64,000 nt of DNA from Chiloscyllium plagiosum (Eukaryota), in NCBI RefSeq assembly GCF_004010195.1, contig NC_057757.1:4312314-4376313 (forward strand), written 5' to 3'. Each line of letters begins with the position of its first letter. Position 1 is the stretch's first letter. A program made the translations under genes and the position numbers. The notes under the pieces are model-generated. The model was not told the DNA's origin, did not search any database, and saw nothing but the letters and a program-made list of their open reading frames with translations. This document shows, piece after piece, positions 1,238-63,422 of the stretch.

Positions 1238-1569
1238 TTCCCCCAGAAGCTGGTGGAAGATCAGTCATTGAGTAAATACAAGGCAGAAAATGACAAATTT
1301 CGAATTTCTCCACTGGCGTGGTGTGTTAAAATGGCATTGAGATAGCTGATTAGCCGTGCACTAAAATGGCAGAATAGAGTCAAAAGGCTGAGTAGTTTTC
1401 TCCTGTTCCCATGCATCTGTCATTCATTTAATTTTGCGAACAGAAACACGGACCCCCTGACTGGGTAATTCTGAATGAACCAAATGTTAATGCAGTTGAG
1501 CTGAAAATGTAAATATGCGATTGACTCTTTGCAGACACCGTTCATTGACACAATGTGTTTGTTCCACAG

Positions 1570-1605
1570 GGAAAGGTTATGGCGGAAAAGGTTATGATGG
1601 CAAAG
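1570..1605 (+). CDS. Microexon, 36 nt, (G)KGYGGKGYDGK
   Basis: ttgttccacag|GGAAAGGTTATGGCGGAAAAGGTTATGATGGCAAAG|gtattg. Confidence 0.8.
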
Positions 1606-4600
1606 GTATTGTCTTTAATTTTAGAAATCAATTTCTCCAAAGGAACTAGGACAGAAAGTGTGACCTAAAACGGTTTTGATGACAGACAGAAACAAACTCC
1701 TTTCTGTTAACAATACCCTGAATATTAGCATCTATCGTTTTGTTGCAAAGTATTAATGAGGTGAATTTTTTGATTCGTACCATATTTGGATTTGGAACAA
1801 ATACAGTTAATTGTCAGAAGACATAGAGAAAACTGGCAGTGTGAATTGTTTGATAGTCATTAGAAAGTTTGTGCGAAGATTTGTAGCTCGGGTGCTCGTT
1901 GATGTGGTTCTGTTCGCCGAGCTGGAAGTTTTTGTTGCAAACGTTTCGTCCCCTGGCTAGGTGACATCATCAGTGCTTGGGAGCCTCCTATGAAGCGCTT
2001 CTTTGATGTTTCCTCCGGTGTTTATAGTGGTCTGTCCCTGCCGCTTCCGGTTGTCAGTTTCAGCTGTCCGCTGTAGTGGTTGGTATATTGGGTCCAGGTC
2101 GATGTGTTTGTTGATGGAGTTTGTGGATGAATGCCATGCCTCTAGGAGACACGCAGACAACAAGCAACATGAATTCGACTGGGACAACACAACTATCATA
2201 GGGCAAGCCAGACAGAGAACAGCCAGGGACAACAGTGGGGCCTGGTTACGGTCCAGGTAATGTCTTTAATTCCAATCATCTGTTGATCTAGAAGTCATAG
2301 GAATAAATGAAAAAGCTAACCAATAAATGATAATGTTGAGTTTTTAGCCGGGAACCAGATTCAAACAAATCCCTGTTAAATTATCCTGAATATATTGTTG
2401 ATGTCTGTCGATAGTGACAGTAATGTGTCAAGTCCCCATCAGGACTGGTCAATATCCAGTGACAATGTGAGCACACTCTCCCAACATTGAAAACCTTCAG
2501 GCATTTTGAACTGAGGTGAGGAGAAACTTCATCACTTGAGTTGAGCGGGGGGTGGGGTGTGAATCTTTGGAATTCTCTCCCCCAGAGGCTGGTGGAAGAT
2601 CAGATTTTCAATTTCTCCTTATTTAAACTATAATGGCACGGGGTGGGAACATAGCATTAAGACAGATGATCAGGTCACACACTAAATGGCAGAATAGAAT
2701 CAAACAGCTAAATAGCTTTCTCCTGTTCCCATGAATGTATGATTATTTTAATTTTGCAAAGAGAAACACAGGCACCCTGACTGAGACATTCTGAATGAAT
2801 CAAATGTTAACTGATTGAGCTGAAGATGTGCATGTGTGATTGAATACTTGCAAAATCCATTCATTGACATAATGTGTTTGCTCCACAGTGAAAATTTTTG
2901 TCGGAAAAGGTATTGTCTTTAATTTTTGAAATCAGTTCCTCCAAACAAATGAGGGCAGAGTGAGAGAGCGAGAGAGAGTGAGCAATAAACAGTTTTGATG
3001 ACAGACAGAATCAAACCCTGCTCTTATAACAGTAGCCGATACATTAGCATCAATTGTTATATTGCAAAGTATTAATTGGGTGTTTTTTTTTATTCTAGCC
3101 ATATTTGGCCAAGGTGCAAGTACTAATTATTATCAGAACATGAAGGAAAATATGTAATATGAATAGACGAACCTCCATAAGAAGGTTTGAAGAGATTAAT
3201 AAAGTCAACAAGAATTTGAAAATACATGAACATTTTTAAATTGTAACTATAATCATTAAGCTATTTAATTCTTAATGAACACTAACGATTCAAGGGGAAG
3301 AGCTGAAAATACAATTTTACAATTCTCTCCAAACTGCTTTAGCAGATATGTTTTGCTTTTCTTCAAAAGTGGGATCTCTTTATGGTCCAGAATTACAGTC
3401 TTTAATCCCATAGATCTGTTGATCTAAAATCAATAGGAACGAAAGAAATAGTCCAATCCATAAATGATAATGTTGAGATTTTAACCATGAACTAGATTCA
3501 AACAAATCCCTGTTAAATTGTCCCAAATACATTGGTGCCAGAACACACTGATGGTAATGTGTCAACTCTCCATCAGGACTAGTCAAAATCCAGGGACAAT
3601 ATGAGCACGCTGTCCCAACATTGAAAAGCCAAAGCATTTGTAACTGAAATAGGGAGAAATCTTTTCACTTGGCCTGAGGGTGAAAGTTTGAAATTCTCTC
3701 CCCCAGAGGCAGGTGGAAGATCCGTCATTGAGTAAATTCAAGGCAGGAAATGAGAGATTTCCAATTCCTCCTCATATCAAGGCACATTGGTGTGGTGTAG
3801 CAACATGGCATTGAGATAGATGATTAGCCATGCACTAAAATGACAGAATATGGTTAAAAGGCTGAGTAGCCTTCTCCTGTTCCCATGTATCTATCATTCA
3901 TTTAATTTTGCGAAGAGAAACACAGACCCTCCAGAGTAGGTAATTCTGAATGAACCAAATGTTAAACCGATTGAGCTGAAAATGTAAGTGTTCATTGCAG
4001 ACGTTGTTCATTGACGCAATGTGTTTATTCCACAGGGAAAGGTTATGATGACAAAGGTATTGTCTTTAATTTGAGAAATCAATTTCCCCAAAAGAACTAG
4101 GATAGAGAGTGTGACCTAACACAGATTTGATGACAGACAGACACAAACTCCTTTCTGTTAACAATACCCTGAATATTAGCATCTATTGTTTTGTTGCAAA
4201 GCATTAATGAGGTGAATTATTTGATTCGAACCATATTTGGACTTGGAACAAATATAGTTAATTTTCAGAAGATATCGAGAAAATTGGCAATGTGAATTGT
4301 TTGATAGTCATTAGAAAGTTAGAAGAGATGAGTAAATTGCAATTAAAATTAATAAGTTTTCAAAAGTACATTACAATCTTCAAATATTAACCATTATCAA
4401 CAATCTGTTTAGCTCTGAATAAACCTCAACATTTCAGCAGAAAATACTGAAAATATTATTTTCCAATTAATGCTCTCCAATGTTCAGTAACAGATCTGTT
4501 TTGTTTTTCTCCAACAGTGGGGCCTGGTTACGGTCCAGGTAATGTCTTTAATTCCAATGATCTATTGATCTAAAAGAGATAGGAATAAAGAAAAAAGCTA

Positions 4601-7600
4601 ATCAATAAGTGATTAATAAATAATCAATAAATGACAAACAAAATGGCAGAATAGGATCAAAAGGCTGAGTAGCCTTCTCCTGTTCCCATGTATCTATCAT
4701 TCATTTAATTTTGCGAAGAGAAACACAGACCCCCAGACTGGGTGATTCTGAATGAACCAAGTGTTAAACCAATTGAGCTGAAAATGTAAATGTGCGATTA
4801 ACTCTTTGCAGACAACGTTCATTGACACAATGTGTTTGTTCCACACGGAAAGGTTATGGCAGGAAAGGTATTGTCTTTAATTTTAGAAATAATTTTCTCC
4901 AAACGAACGAGGGCAGAGAGAGTGATCTAAAACAGTTTTGATGACAGACAGACACAAACCCCTTTCCGATAACAATACATTAAAATATTAGCATTTATTG
5001 TTTTGTTGCAAAGTCTTAATTGGGTGAAATTTCTGATTCTAACCACATTTGGCCCTGAACCAAATATATTTCCCTATGAGAAGATACAGAGAAAATTGAC
5101 AATGCGAATCATTTCATAGCCATTGGACAATTAGATGAGATGACTAAATTGCAATTAAAATCAATAAGATTTGGAAAGTACATTAGAATTTTCAAATATT
5201 CACCCTTAACGATAATCTGCATAGCTCTGAATGAACCTCCACTATTCAGTGAAAAGATAACTTTCCAAGGAATTCTCGACAATGTTCAGTAACAGATCTG
5301 TTTTGTTTTTCTCCAACAGTGGGACATGGTTACGGTCCAGGTAATGTCTCTATCCCAATTATCTATTGAACTAAAAGTATTAGGGAGAAAGAAAAAAGCT
5401 AATTAATAAATGATAATGTTGGTTTTTTAGCCATTGACTAGATTCAAATAAATCCCAGTCAAATTGTCCAAAAATAAGTTGTTGCTGTCTGATGACACTG
5501 ATAGTAATGTGTCAAGTCTCCATCAGGAGTGGTCAATACCCACAGACAATATGAGCACAGTGTTGCCATATTGAAAAGTCAAGACATTTTGAACTGAAAT
5601 ATGGAGCAATTGCTTCACCCAGTGTGGGGGTGAAAGTTTGGAATGCTCTCCCCCAGAGGCTGGTGGAAAATCAGTCATTGGGTAAATTCAAGACAGAAAC
5701 TGACAGATTTTCAATTTCTCATATCAACTGATATGGGCACAGTGTGGGAACATGGCATTGAGATTGATGATCAGCCGCACACTAAAATGGCAGAATATCT
5801 TCAAACAGCAAAAGAGCCTTCTCCTGTTTCCATATATGTTTTATTCTTTTAATTCTGCAAAGAGAAACACAGCCACCCTGAGTGGGTAATTCTGAATGAA
5901 CCAAATGTTAACTGATTGAGCTGAAGATGTGTTTGTCTGATTGAATATTTGCAAACCCGTGCATTGACACAATGTCTTTGAAGCACAGTGAAAGTTTATA
6001 ACGGAAAAGGTATTCTCCTTCATTTTGGAAATCAGTTTCTCCAAACGAATGATGGTAGAGAGGGAGATCAATAAACAGTTTTGATGACAGACAGACTCAA
6101 ACTCTACTCCTATAACAGTAACATGCATCAATTATTTTGTTGAAAATGATCATTTGGATGATTTTTTTATTCTAAACATATTTGGTCATGGTCCAAATAC
6201 TTATTATTATCAGAACAGAAAGGGAAAATATGTAATATAAATAGGTTAACATCTATTAGAAGATTTGAAAAGATGAATGAAATCAATACATTAACATGTA
6301 TCATAGTTGTAATCGATAAGCTATTTATCTTTGAATGAACCCCAACAATTCAAGGGAAAGGACTGATAATATAATTTTGCAGTTATTTCTCTACAAAGTT
6401 CTGTAACAGATGAGTTTTGCTTTTCTTCAAAGATGGGAGCTCTTTATGTTCCAGGCAATATCTCTAATTCCACAGATTTGTTGATCTAAAATTGATAGGA
6501 AAAAAGAAATCGTCCGTTCCATAAATGATAATATTGAGTTTTTAGCCATGAACTCGATTCAAACATATCCCCGTTAAATTGCCCAAAATACATTGTTGGC
6601 GTCCAAACGTACTGATGGTAATGTTGCAAATCTCCATCAGGATTAGTCAAAATTCAGGGACAATCTGATCACACTATTCCAAAATTGAAAAACTAAGGCA
6701 TTTTGAACTGAAATAAGAAGAAATTTCTTCACTCAGCCTGGGGGTGAAGGTTTGAAATTCTGTCCCCCAGAGATTGGTGGAAGATCAGTCCTTAAGTAAA
6801 TTCAAGACAGAAATTGTCAGATTTTATATTTCTCCTCATATCAAGGCACAATGGCGAGGTGTGGCAACATGACATTGAGATAGATGACTAGCCAGGCATT
6901 AAAATGACAGAATAGGATCAAAGGGCTGAGTAGCTTTCTCCTGTTCCCATGTATCTATCATTCATTTAATTTTGCGAAGGGAAACACAGACCCCCAGACT
7001 GGGTAATTCTGAATGAACCAAATGTTAAACCGATTGAGCAGAAAATGTAAATATGTTATTGACTCTCTGCAAACGTCGTTCATTGACACAATGTGTTTGT
7101 TCCACAGGGAAAGGTTACGATGACAAAGGTATTGTCTTTAATTTTCGAAATCAATTTCTCCAAATGAACTGGGTCAGAGAATGACCGAAAACGGTTTTGA
7201 TGACAAACTCCTTTCTGATGACAACACCCTGAATATTAGCATTTATTGTTTTGTTGCAAACTGTTAATTGGGTAAATACTTTGATTCAAACAATATTTGG
7301 ACTTGTACCAAATACTTTAATTGATGAGAAGTTATCGAGAAATTTGGCAATGTGAATTTTTTCATAGTCATTAGAAAGTTAGAAGGGATGAATAAATTGC
7401 AATTAAAATCAGTATGATTCCGAAAGTACATTAACATTTTCAAATATGACTTTCCAATGAATTCTCTACAACGTTCAGTAACAGATCTGTTTTGTTTTTC
7501 TCCAACAGTGGGACCTGGTTATGGCCCAGGTAATGTCTTCAATTCCAATGATCTATTGATCAAAAGGTGATATAAATAAAGAAAAATGCTAATCAATAAA

Positions 7601-10600
7601 TGATAATGTTGAGTTTTTTAGCCATGAACTAGATTCAAATAAATCCCTGCTAAATTGTCCTCACCATGTTGTTGGTGTCTGATGATAGTGATAATAATGG
7701 GTCAAGTCTCCATCAGGACTGCTCAATATCCAGAGACAATGTGAGCGCGCTGTTCCAATATTGAAAAGTCTTCAGGCATTTTGAACTGAGATGAGGAGGA
7801 ATTACTTCTCTGCAGATCTATGGGGAGGGGTGTGAATCTTTGGAATTATCTCCCCCAGAGGCAATGGAAGATCAGTCATTGAGTAAATTCAAGACAGAAA
7901 CTGACAGGTGTTCAATTTCTCCTCATATCAACTGATATGGTGTGGGAACATGGCATTGAGATTGATGATCAGCCGCACACTAAAATGGCAGAATAGAATC
8001 AAACAGCTAAAGAGCCTTCCCCTGTTCCCATGTGTGTAGTATTATTTTAGTGCTTCAAAGAGAAATACAGGCACACATACTGAGAATTTCTGAATGAACC
8101 AAATGTTAACTGATTGAACTGAAGATGTACATGCATGATTGAGTATTTGCAAAAACTGTTCATTGGCACAATGTGTTTGTTCCACAGTGAAAGGTTTTGA
8201 TGGAAAAGGTATTGTCTTTAATTTTTCAAATTGGTTCCTCCAAATGAATGATGGCAGAGAGAGAGAGAGAGAGTGAGCAATAAACAGAGTCAAACCCTGC
8301 TCTTATAACAGTAGCCGATACTTTAGCATCAATTGTTTTGTTGCAAAGTATTAATTGGGTGGTTTATTTGTTCTAAGCATATTTGGAGAAAGTGAGGATG
8401 GCAGATGATGGAGATCTGCGTTCGAGTAAAGCTCCCTCTACACTATCCCCATCAAACACTCCCAGGAGAGGGACAGCACAGGGTTAAATACAGCGTAAAG
8501 CCTCCTCTACACTGTCCCCCATCAAACACTCCCAGGAGAGGGACAGCATGTCGCTAAATACAGGGTAAAGCTCCCTCTACACTATCCCCATCAAACACTC
8601 CCAGGAGAGGGACAGCATGTCGTTAGATACAGTGTAAAGCCTCCTCTACACTGTCCCCCATCAAACATTCACTGGACAGGGACTGCACGGGATTAGATAC
8701 AGAGTAAAGATCCTTCTGCACTATCCCCATCAAACACTCCCAGGACAAGGACAGCACGGGTTTAAATACTGAGTAAATGTCCCTCTACACTGTTCCCCAT
8801 CAAATACTCCCAAGACAGGGATAGGACAAGGTTAGATACAGAGTAAAGCTCCCTCTAAACTTTCTCCCATCAAACACCAGGAGAAAGTGAGGACTGCAGA
8901 TGCTGGAGATCAGAGCTGAAAATGTGTTGCTGGAAAAGTGCAGCAGGTCAGGCAGCATCCAATGAGCAGGAGAATCGACGTTTCGGGCATGAGCCCTTCT
9001 TCGGGAATGGAGAAGGGCTCATGCCCGAAACGTCGATTCTCCAGCTCCTTGGATGCTGCCTGACCTGCTGCGCTTTTCCAGCAACACATTTTTGGCTCTA
9101 AACATATTTGGCCGTGGTCCAAGTATTAATTATTATCAGAACATAAAGATAGAATATGTAATATGAATAAATTGACGCCCATGAGAAGGTTTGAAGAGAT
9201 GAATAAAGTCAATAAGAATTTGAAAATACATGAACATTTTTAAATTGTAACTATGATCATTAAGCTATTTAGTTCTTAATGAACATAACTATTCAAGGGA
9301 AAGGACTGAAAATATAACTTTACAATTATTTCTCTCCAAAAAGTTCTGTAACAGATGTGTTCTACTTTTCTTCAAAAGTGGGACCTCTTTACAGTCCAGG
9401 CAAAGTCTTTAATCGCATAGATCTGTTGATCTAAAATCGATAGGAACAAAGAAATAGTCCAATCCGTAAATGATAATGTTGAAGTTTTAACCATGAACTG
9501 GATTCAAACTAATCCCTGTTAAATTGTCCCAAATACACTATTGGTGTCCGAACATACTGATGGTAATGTGTCAACTCTCCATCAGGACTAGTCAATATCC
9601 AGGGACAATATGATCACACAATTCCAAAATTGAAAAGCCAAAGCATTTTGAACTGAAATAAGGAGAAATTTCTTCACTCAGTGTAAGGGCAATACTTTGA
9701 AATTCTCTCCCCTAGAGGCTGGTGGAAGATCTGAGTAAATTTAAGACAGAAACTGACAGACTTCCAATTTCTCCTCATGTCAAGGGACATTGGCATAGTG
9801 TGGCAACAGGCATTGAGATAGATGACTAGCCATGCACTAAAATGGCAGAATAGGGTCAAAAGGCTGAGGAGCCTTCTCCTGTTCCCATGTATCTATCATT
9901 CATTTAATTTTGTGAAGAGCAACACAGACTCCCAGAGTGGGTAATNNNNNNNNNNNNNNNNNNNNNNNNNNNNNNNNNNNNNNNNNNNNNNNNNNNNNNN
10001 NNNNNNNNNNNNNNNNNNNNNNNNNNNNNNNNNNNNNNNNNNNNNNNNNNNNNNNNNNNNNNNNNNNNNNNNNNNNNNNNNNNNNNNNNNNNNNNNNNNN
10101 NNNNNNNNNNNNNNNNNNNNNNNNNNNNNNNNNNNNNNNNNNNNNNNNNNNNNNNNNNNNNNNNNNNNNNNNNNNNNNNNNNNNNNNNNNNNNNNNNNNN
10201 NNNNNNNNNNNNNNNNNNNNNNNNNNNNNNNNNNNNNNNNNNNNNNNNNNNNNNNNNNNNNNNNNNNNNNNNNNNNNNNNNNNNNNNNNNNNNNNNNNNN
10301 NNNNNNNNNNNNNNNNNNNNNNNNNNNNNNNNNNNNNNNNNNNNNNNNNNNNNNNNNNNNNNNNNNNNNNNNNNNNNNNNNNNNNNNNNNNNNNNNNNNN
10401 NNNNNNNNNNNNNNNNNNNNNNNNNNNNNNNNNNNNNNNNNNNNNACATTTTGTCAAGGGTGTATTGTCTTGTACTCATCAGGACAATTTACAAGAAAAG
10501 CAATTTAAGGGAAAGGAAATTTCTATATTGTATTAGAGGAGTGTTGTGATTAGTTTGTAAGTGTCATGCAATGGGACAGATGTTGCCATGATGAATGCAC

Positions 10601-13600
10601 TGGTTAATGATAGTTGATAGTTAACTGCTAGGATTTGTGCAAATTTATAAGTAGTCAGGTTGACTTTGTTTGCAGCAGCACATTGTATAAAATTGGATAT
10701 ATACCAGAAAAGAGAGAAAACTGATAGAATCATAGAATCCCAACAGTGTAAAAGCAGGCCATTCAGCCCACCAAGTCCATACTGACCCTCTGAAGAGCAA
10801 CCCTCCGAGACCCACCCCCACTCTATCCCTGTAACTTATGTTCTGGTGAAGGAAAGAACTCCACCAGAGAGTTAAAAGAGATGAACAGAAAATGACATGA
10901 ATTGGAAAGTTTATTTAACTTTTAAAGAATAACTCCAATTGATAATCTCTCAGTTCTAACCAGATCCCAATTGTCAAATAGAAAGTGCTGCAAATTAATT
11001 AATTCTCCCCAATAATCAGTAACAGCATCTTTTCCTCGCCCCGCCCTGACAATAGGACTTCCTTATGATGTAGGTATTTTGTTTAATTTCATAAATAGAG
11101 TCATAGAGATGTGCAGCACAGAAACAGACCCTTCGGTCCAACTTGTCCATGTCAACTAGATATCCCAACCTAATCTAATCCAATTTGCCAGCACACAGCC
11201 CATATCTCTTTAAACCATTCCTATCTATGCATGCATCCAGATGTCTTTTAAATGCTGTAATTGTACCAGCCTCCATCACTTCCTCTGGCAGCTCCTTCCA
11301 TATACGCACCACACCCTGTGCAAAAAATGTTGCCCCTTAGGTCTCTTTTATATCTTTCCCCACTCACCTTAGACCTATGCCCTCTAGTTTCGGGACTCCC
11401 ACACCCTGGGGAAAAGACCTTGTCTATTTACCCTATCCATGTCCCTCATGATTTTATAAACCTCTATAAGGTTTATAAAATGTGTTGAATCTAAAATGGA
11501 TTAAGACAAATAAAAGACATTTTGATTTGATCAACTACAAATTAGTTTTATTTTAAGATATTTCTGTTAAAGTGTCCCAAATGTACACCTAGTATCGGAA
11601 AATATGGAAGTAAATCCATGAAGTCTCCAGCAAACTACGCGATATCCAGGTACATAATTCAAACATTTAAAGGCCAAGTTATTATGAATCAAGGTGAGGA
11701 GGAATTTCTACACTCAGAGGGGATTGGGTTTTTGGAATTCTGTAACCTACAGGGTGGTGGAAGATCAACAATTAAATTTGAAACAGACATTGCATCCAAT
11801 CCTGGTCGCCACATTCCAGGAAAGATGTGGAGGCTTCGGAGAGGGTGCAGAAGAGGATGCTGCCTGGGCTCGAGGATGTGAGCTATGGGGAGAGCTGGAG
11901 AAACTCAGGTTGTTTCCCTGGAGCGGCGGAGGCTGAGGGGAGACTTGATGGAAGTCGATAAAATGATAAGATAGGGTTGACAGCCAGAATCTTTTTCCCA
12001 CAGTTGAAATGTCTAATTATTGGGGACATGCATTTGAGGTGAGAGGAGAAAAGTTCAAAGGAGGTGAGGGGCATGTTTTTTACACAGAGAATGGTGAGAG
12101 AGTGGAAAGTGCTGCTGGGGGTGGTGGTGGAGGCAGATATGATAGGGGCATTTAAGTGGCTTGTAGATAAGGACATGAATATGCGAGGAATGGAGGGATA
12201 TGGACCAAGAGCAGGCAGAAGGGATTAGTTTAATTTGGTGTCACATTGTGGGCTGAAGGGCACGTTCCTGTGCTGTACAGTTCCATATTCTATTGGCATA
12301 TTTCTGATGATAATATGGAGTGTTGCGATAATGTCAGAACAGAGCACTGAGACTGACGACCAGGCCTGACATCGGATCAGGCTCGATGGGCTGAATGGCC
12401 TCCCATTATTCCTACGATCCCTGATCAAATGTGTTCCTGTGCCTCTGAACTTGGTTTGATTTTGCAAAGAGTAACGTCGACTTAGTGATAATGCAGCTTT
12501 GTTTGAACACATGTTGGACCTATCACATTCAGAATGTGAATTGTTCAACTCATTCCCCACAGCCAGTGTTCATTCTCGAAGAGTCATAGAGATGTACAGC
12601 ACAGACAAAGACCCTTCGGTCCAACTCGTCCATGCTGACCAGATATCCTAAATTAATCTAGTCCCATTTGTCAGCATTTGGCCCACATCCCTCTAAACCC
12701 TTTCCTCTCTATGTACCCTTCCAGATGTCTTTTAAATGCTGTAATTGTACCAGCCTCCATCACTTCCCCTGGCAGCTCAATCCATTCACGAACCACCCTC
12801 TGAGTGAAAGAGGCATCCCTCAGGTCCCTTTTAAATTTTCCCCTCTCACCTTAAACCTCTAGTTTTGGACTGCCCCACCCCAGGGAAAAGACTTTGTCTA
12901 TTTATCCTATCCATGATTCTATAAACCTCTATAAGGTCACCCCTCAGCCTCTGATGCTCCAGGGAAAACAGCCCCAGCCTGTTCAACCTCACAAACCCTC
13001 CAACCATGGCAACATACTTGTAAATCTTTTCTGAACCCTTCTAAGTTTCACAACATGTTTCCTGTAGCAGGGAGACCAGAATTGAATGCAGTATTCCAAA
13101 AGTGGCCGAACCAGTGTCCTGTACAGCCACAACATGAAATCTCAACTCCTTTACTCAATGCACTGACCAATAAAGTCCAAAGTCACACAGGTTATAGTCC
13201 AGCAGGTTTATTTGAAATCACAAGCTTTCGGAACGCCGCTCCTTCATCAGGTAAGTGCCGGATGAAGAAGCAGCGCTTTGAAAGCTTGTGATTTCAAAAA
13301 AATCTGTTAGACGATAGCCTAATGTCATGTGTGACTTCTGACTTTGTCCACCCCAGTCCAACATCAGCACCTCTACATCTGCCACTCAGCGGCCCATTGG
13401 CCCATCTGATCAAGGTCCTGATCTATTTGCTCCACAGAAAAAAAGTCATAGCAGCAAAGGTGATAGCTTTAATTTCAGAGATCCAGTTCTTGAAAGCAGT
13501 ATGGAAAGAGACAGTGAGCTGTAAAATACGAATCTCTTTGCTAAATGGTTGGTCTGAGCACTCATCTATGCTCTACGATGAGGAGAATTTATTGATCTAA

Positions 13601-34254: not shown

Positions 34255-34270
34255 CTATTCCTGCATCATA
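33693..34270 (+). other. Candidate terminal (3'UTR) exon of gene A
   Basis: gctaac branch + atttctttcctgactttcag acceptor; repeat-free; AATAAA at 34249-34254. Confidence 0.5.
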
Positions 34271-34820: not shown

Positions 34821-34860
34821 TCACTGATGATTTTATCTAGCATGGTGACGAAACATCTGA
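34821..34860 (+). ncRNA. Hammerhead-like motif in a Penelope 3' fragment (34640-34900)
   Basis: ucaCUGAUGA...ggugacGAAAcaucuga; stem II partly decayed; upstream INKHIDLDPIY motif. Confidence 0.5.
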
Positions 34861-37037: not shown

Positions 37038-37058
37038 CTCCATGTCCGTGACGATAAC
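37038..37058 (-). CDS. Microexon, 21 nt, GYRHGHG
   Basis: tctgtttgttccacag|GTTATCGTCACGGACATGGAG|gtaata. Confidence 0.8.
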
Positions 37059-44060: not shown

Positions 44061-44148
<88 letters not shown>

Positions 44149-48147: not shown

Positions 48148-48203
<56 letters not shown>

Positions 48204-49962: not shown

Positions 49963-50016
<54 letters not shown>

Positions 50017-53000: not shown

Positions 53001-56000
53001 CAGCATTTCATCAGCATCAGGATGATCCCCAAAATCTTTATACCCAATGTCGATGGGGTGGCATGGTGGCTCAGTGGTTAGTGCTGCTGCCTCACAGTGC
53101 CAGGGTCTGAGGTTTGACTCCTGTCTCAGGTGACTGTCTGTGTGGAGTTTGTGCATTTTTCCTGTGTCTGTGTGGTTTCCCTCCCACAGTCCAAAGATGT
53201 GCATGTTAGTGTGGATTGGCCGTGTTAAATTGTTCCATATAATCCAGGGACATGCAGGCTAATAGGGTTAACCATGGGAGTTACAGGGTTGGAGGGGGAT
53301 GATCTTTGGAGGGATATGTTGACTGAATGGCCTGTTTCCATATTTTATTGATTCTATGATCTCCCAGACAGAATCTGTCATTGCTATTTTCCTGCCACTG
53401 GAATTTTATCTTTGTAATGGTGGACATTGTGTTTTCTGTATTATCGAAATCTTGTAACTACAGACGTTGTGCCTGGGTACTTTTGCATCTAAGCTGGCAC
53501 TGTCATTGGTGAAGTATAAACATTTGACTGTACTCGTTGCGTAGATTGACAATAAAAGCTACTCTACTCTATTCTACATCCTCTGATAACATGACGTGGA
53601 GGTGCCAGCGTTGGATCGGGGTAGGTAAGGTCAGAAGTCACATGACACCAGATTATATCCCAACAAGTTTATTTTGAAATCACAAGCTTTCAGAGTGTTG
53701 TCAGACGAAGTGAGTTCTCCTGATGAAGGAGCAGCGCTCCAATGAGTTGTGATTTCAAATAAACGTGTTGGAAAATTACCTGCTATCGTATACCCTCTGA
53801 TTCTGATAACAGGCATAATTATTCCTTGACCAGTAACGTCATAGACAAGGGCTTTACTTCACTAATTTTGAAGAGCTAATGGTAAGAAATCAAAGAGAAA
53901 ACTTTACCATAACCACCATAACCTTTGTAACCTGAGGAGACAAGGGAGATTTGAGTTAATGTTGTCATGGAGATTGGTTTTGGAATCTACATGTTCAGCC
54001 ACACAATCAGTTTGACAACGGTTCATGTCCAAAGATTTCAACTTGACGTTGCACATTCAAAATTCAAATGGACTCCACCTTTCGAAATTAGTTTCTTTCA
54101 GTTTATCAATCTTTCCCCTTCATTCAGATAAGTATCACATTCTTGAAGGAAATGATTTTGTGGATTGTACTATCTCCTTCAAATCATGGGGTGAGTCACG
54201 GGAGGGTAACAGCAGAGACAGGTGTGATTTTCCTTCCCCTCCACCTATTCTCAAAAGCAGGAATGGTAAAAGCTCAATTCTTTCTGTGGTCAGTAGCTAA
54301 TTCACACAATTTAACAGGAGAAAGTGAGGTCTGCAGATGCTGGAGATCAGAGCTGAAAATGCGTTGCTGGAAAAGCGCAGCAGGTCAGGCAGCATCCAGG
54401 GAACAGGAGAATCGACGTTTCGGGCATAAGCCCTTCCTGTTGCTGCGCTTTTCCAGCAACACATTTTCAGCACACAATTTAATAGCCAATTTGCAGTGGC
54501 TTCCACCCCATAGCCCACCTCTACTGCCAGCATTTCATCAGCATCAGAATGATCCCCAAATTCGTTACACCCGATGTCAATGGGGTGGCATGGTGGCTCA
54601 GTGGTTAGTGCTGCTGCCTCACAGTGCTAGGAACCCAGGTTTGATTCCAGCCTTCGGTGACTGGCTACGTGGAGTTTGTGCATTTTCGTCGTGTCTGTGT
54701 GGGTTTCCTTATACAGTCCAAAGATGTGTAGGTTTGTGTGCTTTGGCCATGTCAAATTATCCCGTATTATCCAGGGACATGCAGGCTAATAGGATTAGCC
54801 ATGGGAGTTGCAGGGTTGGAGGGGGATTGTCTTTGGAAGGAGATGTGGGCTAAATGGTGTGCTTCCACAGTATGATTTTTCTATGATTTCCCAGACAGAA
54901 TCTATCATTGCTATATTCCTGCTATTGGAGTTTTGTCTTTGTAATGGTGGGCATTGTTATTGGAGTTTTGTCTTTGTAATGGTGGGCATTGTGTTTTCTG
55001 TATTATCTAAATCTTGTCACTATAGAAGCTGTGCCTGGGTACGTTTGTATCTAAGCTGGCGCTGTCATTGGTGAAGTATAAATGATTCACTGTACACATT
55101 GAGTAGATGTGTCAATAAAGGCTACTCTATTCTCCATCCTCTGGTAACATGATGTGGAGGTGCCAGTGTTGGATTGGGGTAGGTAAGGTCAAACGTCACA
55201 CGACACCAGGTTATAACCCAACAAGGTTATTTGAAATCACAAGCTTTCAGAGCATTGTCTGGTGAAGTGAGTTCTCCTGATAAAGGATCAGCGCTTCAAT
55301 GGGTTGTGATTTCAAATAAACCTGATGGACTATTACCTGGTGTCGTGTAACCTCTTACTCACATACTTATTCCTTGACCAGTAGCTTCATAGACAAGGGC
55401 TTTATTTCATTAATTTTGAAGAGCTAATGGGAGGAAATTAAACAGAAAACTTTACCATAACCGCGTCCGTGACCTGAGGAGACAAGAGAGATTTGAGTTA
55501 ATGTTGTCATGGAGATTGGAATCTACATGTTCAGCCACACAATCAGTTTGACAATGGTTCATGTCCAAAGATTTCAACTTGACGTTGCTCATTCAAAATT
55601 CAAAATGGACTCCACCTTTCGAAATTAGTTTCTTTCAATTTATTGATCCTTCCCCTTCGCTCAGATAAATATCGAACTCTTGAGGGAAGTGATATTCTGG
55701 ATTGTTGTATCTCCCTCAAATCATGGGGGAGTCACGGAAGGGTGATGGGAGAGACAGCTATCCCCAAAAGCAGGAATGGTAAAAGCTCAATTCTTCCTGT
55801 GGTCGGTAGCTAATTCACTCAATTTAATCGCCAATTTGCAGTTGTTTCCCGCTCCACCTTCACCCCCAAACCTCTACGGCCAGCATTTCCCTAACCCCCC
55901 AAACTCTACTGCCAGCATTTCATCAGCATCAGGATGATNNNNNNNNNNNNNNNNNNNNNNNNNNNNNNNNNNNNNNNNNNNNNNNNNNNNNNNNNNNNNN

Positions 56001-59000
56001 NNNNNNNNNNNNNNNNNNNNNNNNNNNNNNNNNNNNNNNNNNNNNNNNNNNNNNNNNNNNNNNNNNNNNNNNNNNNNNNNNNNNNNNNNNNNNNNNNNNN
56101 NNNNNNNNNNNNNNNNNNNNNNNNNNNNNNNNNNNNNNNNNNNNNNNNNNNNNNNNNNNNNNNNNNNNNNNNNNNNNNNNNNNNNNNNNNNNNNNNNNNN
56201 NNNNNNNNNNNNNNNNNNNNNNNNNNNNNNNNNNNNNNNNNNNNNNNNNNNNNNNNNNNNNNNNNNNNNNNNNNNNNNNNNNNNNNNNNNNNNNNNNNNN
56301 NNNNNNNNNNNNNNNNNNNNNNNNNNNNNNNNNNNNNNNNNNNNNNNNNNNNNNNNNNNNNNNNNNNNNNNNNNNNNNNNNNNNNNNNNNNNNNNNNNNN
56401 NNNNNNNNNNNNNNNNNNNNNNNNNNNNNNNNNNNNNNNNNNNNNNNNNNNNNNNNNNNNNNNNNNNNNNNNNNNNNNNNNNNNNNNNNNNNNNNNNNNN
56501 NNNNNNNNNNNNNNNNNNNNNNNNNNNNNNNNNNNNNNNNNNNNNNNNNNNNNNNNNNNNNNNNNNNNNNNNNNNNNNNNNNNNNNNNNNNNNNNNNNNN
56601 NNNNNNNNNNNNNNNNNNNNNNNNNNNNNNNNNNNNNNNNNNNNNNNNNNNNNNNNNNNNNNNNNNNNNNNNNNNNNNNNNNNNNNNNNNNNNNNNNNNN
56701 NNNNNNNNNNNNNNNNNNNNNNNNNNNNNNNNNNNNNNNNNNNNNNNNNNNNNNNNNNNNNNNNNNNNNNNNNNNNNNNNNNNNNNNNNNNNNNNNNNNN
56801 NNNNNNNNNNNNNNNNNNNNNNNNNNNNNNNNNNNNNNNNNNNNNNNNNNNNNNNNCAAATCATGGGGGAGTCACGGAAGGGTGATGGGAGAGACAGCTA
56901 TCCCCAAAAGCAGGAATGGTAAAAGCTCAATTCTTCCTGTGGTCGGTAGCTAATTCACTCAATTTAATTGCCAATTTGCAGTTGTTTCCCGCTCCACCTT
57001 CACCCCCAAACCTCTACGGCCAGCATTTCCCTAAACCCCCAAACTCTACTGCCAGCATTTCATCAGCATCAGGATGAGTCCTAAAATCTTTTTACCCAAT
57101 GTTGATGCAGTGGCATGATGGCTCCATGGTTAGTGCTGCTGCCTCATAGTGCCTGGAACCCAGGTTTGATTCCAACCTCAGGTGAATGTCTGTGTGACAC
57201 TTGTGCATTTTCCCTGTGTCTGCGTGTGTTTCCTCCCACCGTCCAAAGATGGACAGCCTAGTGTACCTTGACCATTTTAAATTGTCCCATAGTACCCAAG
57301 GATATGCAGGCTAATAGCGTTAACCATGGGAGTTGCAGGGATGGATTGGGATGCTCTTTTAGGGTCAATGTGGGCTGAATGGCCTGCTTCTACACTGTGA
57401 ATATTCCATGAATTCCCAGACAGAATGTGTCATTGCTATATTCCTGCTATTGGAGTTTTGTCTTTGTAATGGTGGACATTGTGTTTTCTGTATTATCTAA
57501 ATCTTGTAACTACAGAAGCTGCGCCTGGGTACGTTTTGTATCTAATTTGGCGCTGTCATTGGTGAAGTGTAAATGATTCACTGTACTCGTTGAGTAGATG
57601 TGTCAATAAAGGCTACTCTACTCTATTCTCCATCCTCTGGTAACATGATGTGGAGGTGCCAGCGTTGGATTGGGGTAGGTAATGTCAAACGTCACACGAC
57701 ACCAGGTTATAACCCAACAGGTTTATTTGAAATCACAAGCTTTCAGAGCGTTATCTGGTGAAGTGAGTTCTGCTGATAAAGGATCAGCGCTCCAATGGGT
57801 TGTGATTTCAAATAAACCTGATGGACTATTACCTGGTGTCGTGTAACCTCTTACTCACATACTTATTCCTTGACCAGTAACTTCATAGACAAGGGCTTTA
57901 TTTCATTAATTTTGAAGAGCTAATGGGATGAAATTAAAGAGAAAATTTTACCATAACCGCCGCGGCCTTTTTTACCTGAGGAGACAAGAGAGATTTGAAT
58001 TAATGTTGTCATGGAGATTGGTTTTGGAATCTACATGTTCAGCCACACAATCAGTTTGACAATGGTTCATGTCCAAAGATTTCAACTTGACGTTGCTCAT
58101 TCAAAATTCAAAATGGACTCCACCTTTAGAAATTAGTTTCTTTCAATTTATTGATCCTTCCCCTTCGCTCAGATAAATATCGAACTCTTGAGGGAAGTGA
58201 TATTCTGGATTGTAGTATCTCCCTCAAATCATGGGGGAGTCACGGAAGGGTGATGGGAGAGACAGCTATCCCCAAAAGCAGGAATGGTAAAAGCTCAATT
58301 CTTCCTGTGGTTAGGAGCTAGTTCACTCAATTTAATGGCCAATTTGCAGTCGTTTCCCACTCCACCTTCACCCCCATACCACGGCAGCCAGCATTTCCCT
58401 AAACCCCCAAACTCTACTGCCAGAATTTCATCAGCACCAGGATGATCCCCAAAATCTTTATACCCAATGTTGATGCAGTGGCATGATGGCTCCGTGGTTA
58501 GTGCTGCTGCCTCATAGTGCCTGGAACCCAGGTTTGATTCCAACCTCAGGTAAATGTCTGTGTGACGCTTGTGTCTGCGTGTGTTTCCTCCCACCGTCCA
58601 AAGATGGACAGCCTAGTGTACCGTGACCATTTTAAATTGTCCCATCGTACCCAAGGATATGCAGGCTAATAGCATTAACCATGGGAGTTGCAGGGATGGA
58701 TTGGGATGCTCTTTTAGGGTCAATGTGGGCTGAATGGCCTGCTTCTACACTGTGAATATTCCATGAATTCCCAGACAGAATCTGTCATTGCTATATTCCT
58801 GCTATTGGAGTTTTGTCTTTGTAATGGTGGGCATTGTGTTTTCTGTATTATCTAAATCTTGTGACTACCAAAGCTGTGCCTGGGTACGTTTGTTGGCGCT
58901 GTCATTGGTGAAGTATAAACGTTTCACTGTACCCGTTGAGTAGATGTGACAATAAAGGCTATTCTCCATCCTCTGGTAACATGATGTGGAGCTGTCAGCG

Positions 59001-62000
59001 TTAGATTGGGGTAGGTAAGGTCAGAAATCACATGACACCTGGTTATAACCCAACAGGTTTATTTGAAATCACAAGCTTTCAGAGTGCTGTCTGGTGAAGT
59101 GAGTTCTCCTGATGCTTAGGTTGTGATTTCAAATAAACCTGTCGGAATGTAGGCTGGTGTTGTGTGATTTCTGAGTCTGATAACACACATACTTATTCCT
59201 TGACCAGTAGCTTCATAGACAAGGGCTTTATTTCATTAATTTTGAAGAACTAATGGGATGAAATTAAACAGAAAACTTTACCAAAACCGCCTCCGTGACC
59301 TGAGGAGACAAGAGAGATTTGAGTTAATGTTGTCATGGAGATTGGTTTTGGAATCTACATGTTCAGCCACACAATCAGTTTGACAATGGTTCATGTCCAA
59401 AGATTTCAACTTGACGTTGCTCATTCAAAATTCAAATGGATTCCACCTTTCGAAATTAGTTTCTTTCAATTTATTGATCCTTCCCCTTCGCTCAGATAAA
59501 TATCGAACTCTTGAGGGAAGTGATATTCTGGATTGTAGTATCTCCCTCAAATCATGGGGGAGTCACGGAAGGGTGATGGGAGAGACAGCTATCCCCAAAA
59601 GCAGGAATGGTAAAAGCTCAATTCTTCCTGTGGTCAGGAGCTAATTCACTCAATTTAATTGTCAATTTGCAGTCGTTTCCCACTCCACCTTCACCCCCAA
59701 ACCTCTACTGCCAGCATTTCCCTAAACCTCCAAACTCTACTACCAGCATTTCATCAGCATCAGGATGATCCCCAAAATCTTTTTACTCAATGTTGATGCA
59801 GTGGCATGGTGGCTCCATGGTTAGTGCTGCTGCCTCATAGTGCCTGGAACCCATGTGTGATTCCAGCCTCAGGTGAATGTCTGTGTGACGCTTATGCATT
59901 TTCCCTGTGTCTGCGTGTGTTTCCTCCCACTGTCTAAAGATGGGCAGCCTAGTGTACCTTGACCATTTTAAATTGTCCCATAGTACCCAAGGATATGCAG
60001 GCTAATAGTGTTAACCATGGGAGTTGCAGGGATGGATTGGGTTGCTCTTTTAGGGTCAATGTGGGCTGAATGGCCTGCTTCCACACTGTGAATATTCCAT
60101 GAATTCCCAGACAGAATCTGTCTTTGCTATATTCCTGCTATTGGAGTTTTGTCTTTGTAATGGTGGACATTGTGTTTTCTGTATTATCATTTCCGACGCC
60201 CCTTCCCCCAAGTCCCTCCTCCCTATCTTTTATCTTAGCCTGCTGGACCAACTTTCCTCCTTCCTGAAGAAGGGCTAATGCCCGAAACGTCGATTCTCCT
60301 GTTCCCTAGATGCTGCCTGACCTGCTGCGCTTTTCCAGCAACACATTTCCATATCTAAATCTTGTGACTACAGAAGCTGTGCCTGGGCATGTTTGTATCT
60401 AAGTTGACGCTGTCATTGGTGAAGTATAAACGTTTCACTGTACTCGTTGAGTAGATGTGACAATAAAGGCTATTCTCCATCCTCTGGTAACATGTTGTGT
60501 AGCTGTCAGCGTTGGATTGGGGTAGATAAGGTCAGAAAGCACACGACACCAGGTTATAACCCAACAGGTTTACTTGAAATCACAAGCTTTCAGAGTGCTG
60601 TCTGGTGAAGTGAGTTCTCCTGATGCTTAGGTTGTGATTTCAAATAAACCTGTCGGAATGTAAGCTGGTGTTGTGTGATTTCTGACTCTGATAACACACA
60701 TACTTATTCCTTGACCAGTAGCTTCATAGACAAGGGCTTTATTTCATTAATTTTGAAGAACTAATGGGAGGAAATTAAACAGAAAACTTTACCATAACCG
60801 CCATAATCTCCGGGACCTGAGGAGCCAAGAGAGATTTGAGTTAATGTTGTCATGGAGATTGGTTTTGGAATCTACATGTTCAGCCACACAATCAGTTTGA
60901 CAATGGTTCATGTCCAAAGATTTCAACTTGACGTTGCTCATTCAAAATTCAAATGGACTCCACCTTTTGAAATTAGTTTCTTTCAATTTATTGATCCTTC
61001 CCCTTCGCTCAGATAAATATCAAACTCTTGAGGGAAGTGATATTCTGGATTGTGGTATCTCCCTCAAATCATGGGGGAGTCACGGAAGGGTGATGGGAGA
61101 GACAGCTATCCCCAAAAGCAGGAATGGTAAAAGCTCAATTCTTCCTGCGGTCGGTAGCTAATTCACTCAATTTAATTGCCAGTTTGCAGTCGTTTCCCAC
61201 TCCACCTTCTCCCCCAAACCTCTACTGCCAGCATTTCCCTAAACCCCCAAAGTATACTGCCAGCATTTCATCAGCATCAGGATGATCCCCAAAATCTTTA
61301 TACCCAATGTTGATGCAGTGGCATGGTGGCTCAGTGGTTAGTGCTGCTGCCTCATAGTGCCTGGGACCCAGGTTTGATTCCAGCCTCAGGTAGATGTCTG
61401 TGTGACACTTGTGCATTTTCTCTGTGTCTGCGTGTGTTTCCTCCCACACTCTAAAGATGGGCAGCCTAGTGTAGCTTGACCATTTTAAATTGTCCCATAG
61501 TACCCAAGGATATGCAGGCTAATAGTGTTAACCATGGGAGTTGCAGGGATGGATTGGGTTGCTCTTTTAGGGTCAATGTGGGCTGAATGGCCTGCTTCTA
61601 CACTGTGAATATTCCATAAATTTTCAGACAGAATCTGTCATTGCTATATTCCTGCTATTGAAGTTTTGTCTTTGTAATGGTGGGCATTGTGTTTTCTGTA
61701 TTATCTAAATCTTGTGACTACAGAAGCTGTGCCTGGGTACGTTTGTATCTAATTTGGCGCTGTCATTGGTGAAGTATAAACGTTTCACTGTACTCGTTGA
61801 GTAGATGTGACAATAAAGGCTATTCTCCATCCTCTGGTAACATGATGTGGAGCTGTCAGCATTGGATTGGGGTAGATAAGGTCAGAAATCACACGACACC
61901 AGGGTTATAACCCAACAGGTTTATTTGAACTCACAAGCTTTCAGAGTGCTGTCTGGTGAAGTGAGTTCTCCTGATGCTTAGGTTGTGATTTCAAATAAAC

Positions 62001-63422
62001 CTGTCGGAATGTAAGCTGGTGTTGTGTGATTTCTGACTCTGATAACACACATACTTATTCCTTGACCAGTAGCTTCATAGACAAGGGCTTTATTTCATTA
62101 ATTTTGAAGAACTAATGGGAGGAAATTAAACAGAAAACTTTACCATAACCGCCATAATCTCCGGGACCTGAGGAGCCAAGAGAGATTTGAGTTAATGTTG
62201 TCATGGAGATTGGTTTTGGAATCTACATGTTCAGCCACACAATCAGTTTGACAATGGTTCATGTCCAAAGATTTCAACTTGACGTTGCTCATTCAAAATT
62301 CAAAATGGACTCCACCTTTCGAAATTAGTTTCTTTCAATTTATTGATCCTTCCCCTTCGCTCAGATAAATATCGAACTCTTGAGGGAAGTGATATTCTGG
62401 ATTGTGGTATCTCCCTCAAATCATGGGGGAGTCACGGAAGGGTGATGGGAGAGACAGCTATCCCCAAAAGCAGGAATGATCAAAGCTCAATTCTTCCTGT
62501 GGTCGGTAGCTAATTCACTCAATTTAATTGTCAATTTGCAGTCGGTTCCCACTCCACCTTCACCCTCAAACCTCTACTGCCAGCATTTCCCTAAACCCCC
62601 AAACTCTACTGCCAGCATTTCATCAGCATCAGAATGATCCCCAAAATCTTTATACCCAATGTTGATGCAGTGGCATGGTGGCTCCATGGTTAGTGCTGCT
62701 GCCTCATAGTGCCTGGAACCCATGTGTGATTCCAACCTCAGGTGAATGTCTGTGTGATGCTTGTGCATTTTCCCTGTGTCTGCGTGTGTTTCCTCCCACT
62801 GTCCAAAGATGGACAGCCTAGTGAACCTTGACCATTTTAAATTGTCCCGTAGTACCCAAGGGTATGCAGGCTAATAGCGTTAACCATGGGAGTTGCAGGG
62901 ATGGATTGGGACGCTCTTTTAGGGTCAATGTGGGCTGAATGGCCTGCATCCTCACATTGAATATTCCATGAATTCCCAGACAGAATCTGTCATTGCTATA
63001 TTCCTGCTATTGGAGTTTTGTCTTTGTAATGGTGGGCATTGTGTTTTCTGTATTATCTAAATCTTGTCATTACAGAAGCTGTGCCTGGGTACGTTTGTAT
63101 CTACGAGGAGACCCTGACCACGCCTGACCCCGTCCCCACGCCTACTTCTTCAACACGACACCAGGTTATAACCCAACAGGTTTATTTGAAATCACAGTCT
63201 TTCAGAGCGCTGTCTGGTGAAGTGAGTTCTCCTGATGCTTAGGTTGTGATTTCAAATAAACCTGTCGGAATGTAAGCTCGTGTTGTGTGATTTCTGACTC
63301 TGATAACACACATACTTATTCCTTGACCATTAGCTTCATGGACAAGGGCTTTATTTCATTAATTTTGAAGAGCTAATGGGATGAAATTAAATAGAAAACT
63401 TTACCATAACCGCCTCCGTGAC
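37038..63422 (-). CDS. Gene(s) B (incomplete model): microexon-built Gly/Tyr/His-rich protein(s)
   Basis: 14 intact phase 1-1 microexons, one per tandem repeat unit, all 18/21/24 nt with no stops. Confidence 0.8.
38332..38755 (+). repeat. 65-bp minisatellite (1-7 copies in each array-2 unit)
   Basis: gctcacatctcagggcaggacagagctgagtaacagagagacattgcaaacacagcctggttaat. Confidence 0.9.
39384..39404 (-). CDS. Microexon, 21 nt, GYGPGYG
   Basis: ttccacag|GTTATGGTCCCGGATATGGAG|gtaata. Confidence 0.82.
41372..41392 (-). CDS. Microexon, 21 nt, GYGPGHG
   Basis: ttccacag|GTTATGGTCCCGGACATGGAG|gtaata. Confidence 0.82.
43422..43442 (-). CDS. Microexon, 21 nt, GYRGEHG
   Basis: ttccacag|GTTACCGTGGCGAACATGGAG|gtaata. 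Confidence 0.8.
44053..44150 (+). repeat. (TATC)n microsatellite, variable in every array-2 unit
   Basis: Direct reading. Confidence 0.95.
45370..45390 (-). CDS. Microexon, 21 nt, GYGPRHG
   Basis: ttccacag|GTTATGGTCCCAGACATGGAG|gtaata. Confidence 0.8.
47516..47536 (-). CDS. Microexon, 21 nt, GYHGGHG
   Basis: ttccacag|GTTACCATGGCGGACATGGAG|gtaata. Confidence 0.82.
49341..49352 (-). pseudogene. Truncated microexon in the divergent edge unit (GHDG, donor deleted)
   Basis: ttctacag|GTCATGATGGTG|gatatc. Confidence 0.55.
52244..52267 (-). CDS. Microexon, 24 nt, GYGGYGDY
   Basis: ctctcttgtctcctcag|GTTACGGAGGTTATGGCGATTATG|gtaaag. Confidence 0.85.
52311..52606 (+). mobile_element. Young HE1-like SINE inserted in one array-3 unit
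   Basis: Interrupts ggagatt|ggttttggaatc, which is contiguous in the other units. Confidence 0.85.
53908..53931 (-). CDS. Microexon, 24 nt, GYKGYGGY
   Basis: ctcctcag|GTTACAAAGGTTATGGTGGTTATG|gtaaag. Confidence 0.85.
55456..55473 (-). CDS. Microexon, 18 nt, GHGRGY
   Basis: ctcctcag|GTCACGGACGCGGTTATG|gtaaag. Confidence 0.83.
57952..57975 (-). CDS. Microexon, 24 nt, GKKGRGGY
   Basis: ctcctcag|GTAAAAAAGGCCGCGGCGGTTATG|gtaaaa. Confidence 0.8.
59282..59299 (-). CDS. Microexon, 18 nt, GHGGGF
   Basis: ctcctcag|GTCACGGAGGCGGTTTTG|gtaaag. Confidence 0.83.
60793..60816 (-). CDS. Microexon, 24 nt, GPGDYGGY
   Basis: ctcctcag|GTCCCGGAGATTATGGCGGTTATG|gtaaag. Confidence 0.83.
62144..62167 (-). CDS. 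Microexon, 24 nt, GPGDYGGY
   Basis: ctcctcag|GTCCCGGAGATTATGGCGGTTATG|gtaaag. Confidence 0.83.
63405..63422 (-). CDS. Microexon, 18 nt, GHGGGY
   Basis: ctcctcag|GTCACGGAGGCGGTTATG|gtaaag. Confidence 0.83.

Follow-up and report, generated by a model that had tools for sequence, protein, structure and literature searches.

Probable convergent microexon genes for secreted Gly/Tyr-rich proteins of structural type in the genome of Chiloscyllium plagiosum

Introduction

In tropoelastin every intron is of phase 1:1 and the exons behave as cassettes, according to the available text of 10.1101/2024.12.03.626628; in jawed fishes the gene (eln) belongs to an eln-septin4/5-limk1 block, with a single copy in all but the teleosts, and the tropoelastin of cartilaginous fishes is highly hydrophobic (PMC12733013, in the portion available). 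The micro-exon genes (MEGs) of schistosomes encode secreted proteins and have symmetric exons of 3-81 bp with long introns between them, as described in the accessible part of 10.1101/2023.06.21.545858. Here we describe a locus of the shark Chiloscyllium plagiosum – a stretch of 64 kb (C48:4312314-4376313, contig NC_057757.1; hereafter the window) together with its flanks – that resembles both systems in architecture and that probably holds real, lineage-specific microexon genes for secreted proteins of structural type. The locus reads best as a cluster of paralogous, convergently transcribed microexon genes: this reading is well supported by structure, and we put its probability at roughly 0.7. 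A literature search, with most subscription journals outside its coverage, returned no description of such shark genes.

What the locus is predicted to encode resembles tropoelastin in several respects: tropoelastin is a secreted low-complexity matrix protein in which Lys-bearing and Gly-Pro-Val-rich domains alternate one per exon, and parts of its gene grew by replication of exon+intron units. The phase feature of tropoelastin is also present here, in 45 of 45 intact units and in both first exons, which end after codon base 1. The locus differs, however, in having exons of only 15-36 nt, 14-20% Tyr and several paralogues, in lacking both poly-Ala KA or KP cross-link motifs and a hydrophobic bulk, and in lying outside the eln-septin-limk1 block. 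With MEGs it has in common a longer signal-peptide exon in front and exon skipping that would keep the frame, and the features of MEG architecture recur in exons that are 15-36 nt long and symmetric, in long introns, and in a predicted signal peptide. MEGs, on the other hand, are flatworm-specific families whose hallmark is variation by alternative splicing, whereas the present locus combines near-identical tandem cassettes and a repetitive Gly/Tyr protein with a vertebrate host; given that host, common descent is implausible. A first-pass annotation of this DNA, made from sequence alone, had drawn both parallels. The one with MEGs holds as an analogy of architecture only; the one with tropoelastin stands as the same kind of analogy and fails as membership (there is no septin on the contig and the composition is wrong).

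Other repetitive proteins invite comparison. The flagelliform silk gene of spiders consists of iterated exon+intron units with homogenised introns, which can be more alike than the exons, and encodes a Gly/Pro/Tyr-rich repetitive material protein; its host is an arthropod and its exons are hundreds to thousands of bases long. Two arrays of the present locus (B and C, below) likewise have introns more alike than exons, a likeness that does not imply homology. Lamprin of lamprey cartilage (a secreted, insoluble matrix protein with GGLGY-type repeats, Ala/Leu/Val-rich and not made of microexons) and the mammalian high-Gly/Tyr KRTAPs (single-exon, intracellular and without a signal peptide) resemble the locus in their Gly/Tyr-rich repeats, a likeness by description only.

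Results

Phase-symmetric putative microexons on facing strands

The window was examined together with 60 kb upstream and 20 kb downstream (144 kb in all, on a contig of 9.99 Mb), and genome-wide searches covered an assembly of 3.56 Gb in 101,977 contigs. Units were located by similarity and the exon-homologous stretch was then read in each; two units (D1 and D2) come from a mechanical AG...GT scan. A unit was called intact if AG precedes the exon, GT follows it, its length is a multiple of 3 and phase 1 is free of stops. The window contains 28 intact units (14 on each strand) and eight defective ones, and the 144 kb contain 61 units, 45 of them intact. Intact exons of the window are 15, 18, 21, 24 or 36 nt long and total 600 nt, or 0.94% of the window, with introns of ~0.4-13 kb; entry in phase 1 gives a Gly/Tyr-rich peptide in all units. 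Units on the + strand all lie left of 30.4 kb and those on the - strand all right of 37.0 kb, resulting in a convergent arrangement. The first-pass annotation had reported more than 25 segments of 15-36 nt with AG/GT sites, lengths in multiples of 3 and phase 1-1, peptide motifs of Gly/Tyr-rich type, pyrimidine tracts with branch-like motifs, opposite strands facing each other and a coding share below 2%. Each of these was recovered: the intact units run from 1570-1605 (+) to 63405-63422 (-), length and phase hold for all of them, and the peptide motifs reappear in the phase-1 reading of the catalogued units.

The AG...GT scan gave 26 matches in the window compared to 1.52 +/- 1.5 (largest 6) in 50 dinucleotide shuffles; the matches are duplicates of about seven unit classes, and hence are not 26 independent events.

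Unit classes descend from one ancestral unit

A branch-point-like motif (TTGAC, TTAAC, GTAAC or CTAAC) stands 24-32 nt before the AG and is followed by a pyrimidine tract. On the donor side a 14-nt box, GTAWTRTCTTTAAT (allowing up to one mismatch), is found 17 times in the window against 0.06 expected, and every occurrence is directly after a unit and on the strand of the gene. Alignment between classes Aa, B, D1, D2, E, F and G is possible only across a core that surrounds the exon, from about -40 to +130, and is always in register: beyond these limits their sequence has diverged or been replaced. Class C has only the donor-side box in common with the other classes. The unit classes descend from one ancestral unit of exon plus flanks.

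Reading frame is preserved

Differences in exon length are all multiples of 3 (+15 at 1570, -3 at 17319, and 6 nt among the C exons). The length itself is a multiple of 3 in 45 of 45 intact units and in 14 of 16 defective units; gap runs in aligned introns are multiples of 3 in only 5/20 and 7/28 cases. Stops in phase 1 are under-represented: one of 47 21-nt units has such a stop versus 6.9 expected (P = 0.004) from simulations in which the same number of changes per unit was placed at random on the class consensus (5000 runs, with copies treated as independent). In the phase-2 frame 19 of 24 Aa units contain a stop.

A promoter and a signal-peptide exon head each orientation

Both upstream regions were scanned for ATG-led hydrophobic frames that end at a phase-1 donor. 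Ten candidates were obtained, two of which are homologous to each other. Exon 1 of the + gene (L013:1214-1270, window -28787, 28.8 kb upstream of the window; + strand) is MEYPCVLLLVSLMAVVMAG, and that of the - gene (L009:3214-3270, the exon occupying window 67216-67270, 3.3 kb past the window end; - strand) is MKYLCLFLLVSLMAVVMAG; both end in G|GTA. Each is oriented towards its own array, breaks off within a Gly codon after base 1 (phase 1), and encodes an 18-residue hydrophobic leader ending V-M-A, a signal peptide as judged by rule of thumb. Upstream of both exons is a conserved block comprising two CCAAT boxes, TATAAA or CATAAA, and a short leader. Among three paralogues identity is 0.93 across the 57 coding bases of exon 1, 0.80-0.85 from -300 to -1, 0.40 beyond -300, and 0.64 over the first 50 intron bases. 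Second exons have the same phase as the first: 24 nt at window -25669 (+; GKYPFHGY) in the + gene and 15 nt at window 66561-66547 (-; DPEPF, donor GTAAGT) in the - gene.

A candidate last exon of the + gene lies at 30297..30372 (+). It has the family acceptor, and GC in place of the GT donor of its relatives; the phase-1 frame continues for 22 codons to a TGA at 30361-30363, and AATAAA follows at 30367-30372. A search for paired last exons by inverted repeats, within 21.6-37 kb, gave only transposon pairs, and a 144-kb scan for longer Gly/Tyr-rich open frames gave only the microexons and transposon frames.

Gene number and family copies

Promoter plus exon 1 has nine matches genome-wide; the array units are confined to this locus and to small unplaced contigs, where more cassette variants are found, all in frame. 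The unplaced contig C90234 has, at 96% identity, exon 1 and a variant of exon 2 (VPEPF) joined directly to a B-type unit, and it runs through sequence matching 50436-50714, the left edge of the assembly gap that separates arrays B and C (an N run at 50717..51216). Because this contig joins exons 1 and 2 to a B-type unit via gap-edge sequence, we suspect a separate B-array gene: the gap may hide its start (promoter and first two exons). We think that the cluster consists of one + gene and one or, more likely, two - genes, which would tentatively make three in all.

Two broader claims of the first-pass annotation can be placed here. Hidden convergent microexon genes that grow by duplication of exon+intron units are supported by structure – by a homologous promoter and exon 1 for each orientation, one ancestral unit, frame-keeping lengths and few stops. 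A single gene pair is right as to the two facing orientations and falls short as to number: the - side may be two genes, and copies of promoter and exon 1 lie elsewhere.

These copies of the promoter and signal-peptide exon, at C48:4575633-4576018 (+), C48:2884457-2884796 (-), C100038:27792-28157 (-) and C91784:3547-3868 (+), are up to 1.4 Mb away on C48 and also on unplaced contigs; in the stretch around the C100038 copy, 4772 of 8000 nt are N. A genome search for a joined retrocopy (a degenerate pattern of three 7-residue periods) found none among the 100 matches listed of 164, all of these being 21-bp minisatellites with the exception of one GYPPAPG-type coding repeat. This last, at C38:20181014-20181147, is a coding-looking GYPPAPG heptad repeat unrelated to the microexon locus.

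Predicted products

In the + gene, 31 intact cassettes add up to a predicted product of 219 residues (G 32%, K 14%, Y 14%, P 11%, V 10%, D 8% and Ala 0.5%), with an isoelectric point (pI) of 9.6, a grand average of hydropathy (GRAVY) of -0.99 and no KA/KP motifs; Lys/Asp/Tyr cassettes alternate with VGPGYGP cassettes. On the - side, 14 cassettes would give a product of 100 residues (G 52%, Y 20%, H 10%), with a pI of 9.2, a GRAVY of -1.32, and neither Ala nor Val.

Organization of the arrays

Array A (window part 1236..9945, +), delimited by self-blastn and the unit catalogue, is composed of tandem exon+intron units of ~0.8-1.2 kb and extends beyond the window start, upstream to about -23.8 kb. 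Its cassettes alternate between Aa-type (Lys/Tyr/Asp) and Ab-type (Val-Gly-Pro-Gly-Tyr). The 36-nt microexon at 1570..1605 (phase 1-1; GKGYGGKGYDGK(G)) carries a 15-nt in-frame insertion relative to its 21-nt relatives. Microexons of 21 nt follow at 2236..2256 (VGPGYGP(G)), 2889..2909 (VKIFVGK(G), with intact splice sites and atypical composition), 4036..4056 (GKGYDDK(G)), 4518..4538 (VGPGYGP(G)), 5320..5340 (VGHGYGP(G)), 5989..6009 (VKVYNGK(G)), 7108..7128 (GKGYDDK(G)), 7509..7529 (VGPGYGP(G)) and 8188..8208 (VKGFDGK(G)), all on the + strand. Further + strand microexons are located at 17319..17336 (18 nt, GKGYDK(G), with a 3-nt in-frame deletion), 21280..21294 (D1, 15 nt, GYGPK(G)), 21589..21609 (D2, 21 nt, GKGYRGT(G)) and 28259..28279 (E, 21 nt, GSYYFDK(G)).

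Within 3370..19414 the + gene has seven defective units: at 3370-3390 (donor AA), 4847-4867 (acceptor AC), 6434-6454 (GA/GC), 9379-9399 (donor GC), 15400-15420 (AC/GC), 16132-16152 (in-frame TAA) and 19405-19414 (10 nt left). A + strand relic also lies at ~13438-13459 (22 nt, the length being judged by eye). Transposable elements are densely inserted at 10-35 kb. A 70-bp minisatellite at 8424-8877 (6.5 copies, 82% matches) interrupts the A unit that stands last before the gap, and minisatellites of 52-53 bp at 20541-21096 and 50193-50405 are both built from a unit resembling a short interspersed nuclear element (SINE). A different 52-bp minisatellite fills intron 1 of the - gene (L009 ~2624-3159, window 66624-67159), and its unit is also common to the paralogous first introns.

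Array B (35737..50040, -) has seven units of ~2 kb with one microexon each, and every unit also holds a 65-bp minisatellite and a (TCTA)n microsatellite. Its microexons, of 21 nt and on the - strand, are at 37038..37058 (GYRHGHG(G)), 39384..39404 (GYGPGYG(G)), 41372..41392 (GYGPGHG(G)), 43422..43442 (GYRGEHG(G)), 45370..45390 (GYGPRHG(G)) and 47516..47536 (GYHGGHG(G)); in the defective unit at 49340..49352 (-) an 11-nt deletion took the exon end and the donor.

Array C (51434..63826, -) has at least eight units of ~1.4 kb, again with one microexon each. On the - strand, exons of 24 nt are at 52244..52267 (GYGGYGDY(G)), 53908..53931 (GYKGYGGY(G)), 57952..57975 (GKKGRGGY(G)), 60793..60816 and 62144..62167 (both GPGDYGGY(G)), and exons of 18 nt at 55456..55473 (GHGRGY(G)), 59282..59299 (GHGGGF(G)) and 63405..63422 (GHGGGY(G)), the last being the first array exon of the - gene.

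Neighbouring genes and other elements

On the + strand upstream of the locus a neighbouring gene (L016:5680-6135, L015:8271-8912 and L014:3405-4193; window about -54.3 to -35.8 kb) has Pfam matches to CUB (E 2.8e-6) and Sushi (E 3.6e-4) and also, within a single 263-aa frame, to a complete Trypsin domain (E 9.9e-46); single-exon protease domains are typical of the MASP-2/C1r/C1s type. Downstream, a frame at L010:4604-5041:+ (window 78604-79041) matches the thyrotropin-releasing-hormone (TRH) precursor weakly (27.4 bits against a cut-off of 27.8, E 3.5e-6) and may be the neighbouring gene on that side. Further Pfam matches among the 80 longest of 366 open reading frames of the flanks are to retroelement domains.

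A head-to-head palindromic short element (...gctggaaaag.gcagcaggtcaggcagcatc...cgacgtttcgggc...) lies at window 8880-9100, and elements of the same type at ~23560-23640, 24520-24600 and 60230-60340. Rfam gave no match at the gathering score, this element included.

Evidence against working genes, and alternative explanations

A number of observations weigh against a cluster of working genes. Sixteen of the 61 units in the 144 kb are defective. AG/GT columns of array A are conserved at 0.8-0.9, no better than their neighbours (flank mean 0.85). The ratio of nonsynonymous to synonymous differences (pN/pS) is 0.73-0.78 in A units, without a difference between intact and defective Aa units, and reaches about 2 in B; these values do not point to constraint on individual residues. 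In both B (0.157 vs 0.067) and C (0.227 vs 0.101) the exons vary about 2.3 times as much as well-aligned intron. No last exon of the - gene(s) was found in the 144 kb, and that of the + gene is a candidate only. Among the family copies, the exon 1 at C48:4575.9 kb has T for G at its last base, and no cassette occurs in the 10 kb that follow it (C48:4575.5-4585.5 kb). Furthermore, copies are kin by duplication, so that per-copy statistics overstate independence, and the locus is broken by five N runs (9946-10445, 35217-35716, 46767-47327, 50717-51216 and 55939-56856). In our view selection operates on the frame, on composition and on the number of cassettes rather than on single residues or cassettes. 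The pattern of constraint fits a modular low-complexity protein; it is also close to that of a recently dead gene.

The excess variability of exons bears on a rather unlikely alternative, in which the genes are real and the products non-structural: alternative splicing would generate varied secreted Gly/His/Tyr/Arg-rich peptides – antimicrobial or mucus-associated, for example – by analogy with the variation of schistosome MEGs and with the glycine-rich antimicrobial peptides of invertebrates. Symmetry of all cassettes, the basic predicted products (pI 9.2-9.6), a multigene family with several promoter copies, and a pN/pS of about 2 in B would suit such peptides. The hypervariability is statistically marginal, however, being equalled in 62 of 1168 and 56 of 382 intron windows, and the + gene, with its long runs of VGPGYGP cassettes that hardly differ from one another, has more the look of a gene for a repetitive material protein.

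We consider it improbable that the cluster is dying or dead, that is, a once-functional microexon gene whose arrays are now drifting and whose B and C units look intact through recent duplication. The defective units, the splice dinucleotides of array A, and pN/pS values near 1 that do not distinguish intact from defective Aa units are what drift would give, and transposable elements are densely inserted at 10-35 kb; moreover, since B and C units differ from one another by only 4-10%, descent would be expected to leave their splice sites intact. A gene need not be dead for having defective units, however, because loss of a single cassette is expected to be harmless in a modular protein; and the old, otherwise unalignable unit classes retain AG/GT, frame and Gly/Tyr reading. 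Both first exons keep ATG, signal peptide and phase-1 donor; the promoter block to which they belong has a sharp end at about -300, and they are its most strongly conserved portion. To these may be added the shortage of stops (1 vs 6.9) and exon indels that are all multiples of 3.

That the locus is the shark tropoelastin gene, or its duplicate, is largely refuted and very improbable. All exons are of phase 1-1 with a split Gly codon, which is the case in every tropoelastin according to the available text of 10.1101/2024.12.03.626628, Lys-bearing cassettes alternate with Val/Pro/Gly cassettes in the + gene, and a signal peptide is present; yet none of 62 genomic matches to Septin (PF00735) is on the 10-Mb contig (limk1 itself was not searched for), and the locus is flanked by a MASP/C1r-like gene and a TRH-like frame. 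Among the 80 longest flank frames none has a Pfam match to a septin, LIM or kinase domain. Composition is wrong in its Ala content (0.5%), its lack of KA/KP motifs and its GRAVY of -1.0 to -1.3; the family has several members; and the Cys-pair basic C-terminus of elastin was not found in the 144 kb (two pattern matches in six frames, neither in a gene context, the last exon of the + gene being only a candidate). With no septin on the contig, a hydrophilic Ala-poor composition and several paralogues, membership is rejected as far as sequence can tell. Membership of the SCPP genes was likewise rejected, on intron phase and charge of the product (the sparc-L neighbourhood was not searched): these genes, including elasmobranch scpp, have phase-0 introns and an acidic or P/Q-rich product and lie next to sparc-L (PMC9122587, in the part available), whereas introns of the locus are of phase 1 and the predicted product is basic.

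Scarcely credible, finally, are non-genic satellite or transposon-derived repeats with coincidental AG...GT: the units are indeed tandem repeats accompanied by minisatellites, microsatellites and fragments of SINEs and long interspersed nuclear elements, and the first 113 nt of the B-unit query are a dispersed repeat with many genomic copies, but the exon-bearing cores have no copies outside this locus and unplaced contigs, the units lie on the same strand as their gene with a promoter and signal-peptide exon heading each orientation, and a satellite would not be expected to show such phase, lengths in multiples of 3 or a shortage of stops.

Discussion

If the locus is a cluster of convergent microexon genes, as we prefer to think, then each gene would start with a TATA/CCAAT promoter and a signal-peptide exon 1 ending in phase 1, and nearly all of the remaining coding sequence would consist of 15-36-nt cassettes with phase 1 at both ends (G|GN or G|TG). 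Every cassette has a separate exon+intron unit of 0.8-2 kb, duplicated in tandem. That these exons are spliced and expressed we infer. Exon recognition would probably involve the yTRAC motif 24-32 nt upstream, the pyrimidine tract, a GTAWK donor and a nearby U-rich box; this box, TCTTTAAT at +7 to +14, is one probable recognition signal for such short exons. If the exons are spliced, both products would be secreted and of low complexity. Given symmetric cassettes, the gain, loss, decay or skipping of a unit should keep the frame, and arrays would therefore be free to expand and contract by unequal crossing-over.

Composition suggests, more weakly, that the products are extracellular structural material, self-associating via Gly and Tyr and cross-linkable via Tyr, Lys and His. 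As destinations, the egg capsule and fin-ray elastoidin are guesses; quinone tanning as in egg capsules, suggested by the first-pass annotation, is likewise a guess from composition. Elastoidin has a tyrosine-rich non-collagen component (actinodins), and actinodins are encoded by ordinary genes with about 10 repeats, according to the available portion of PMC13120675; elastoidin is thus a possible destination for a secreted Tyr-rich shark protein. Work on the catshark egg capsule names, in the part accessible, only collagen (PMC10230700), and neither paper makes a connection to the present locus.

Tentatively, the locus could also be viewed as a vertebrate counterpart of flatworm MEGs: a family of the shark lineage in which dozens of variably spliced, symmetric cassettes of 15-36 nt, each within a homogenised intron unit, would give rise to varied secreted Gly/Tyr/His/Lys-rich proteins, with the TCTTTAAT box as a dedicated signal.

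Should the exons be spliced, a vertebrate family would exist in which coding sequence makes up ~1% of a locus of at least 100 kb and consists almost wholly of microexons – a kind of gene missed by open reading frame finders and by many gene predictors. More than 40 near-identical microexons with one flanking motif would then be at hand for the study of how very short exons are recognised. The locus would also illustrate cleanly how, in nature, a repetitive material protein can grow as its exon+intron cassettes are duplicated, the tropoelastin principle taken to a microexon extreme in a vertebrate. The biochemistry of the Tyr-rich cross-linked materials of elasmobranchs is old, and the literature covered by the search assigns no genes of this kind to them; if spliced, the genes described here would be candidates for those extracellular materials.

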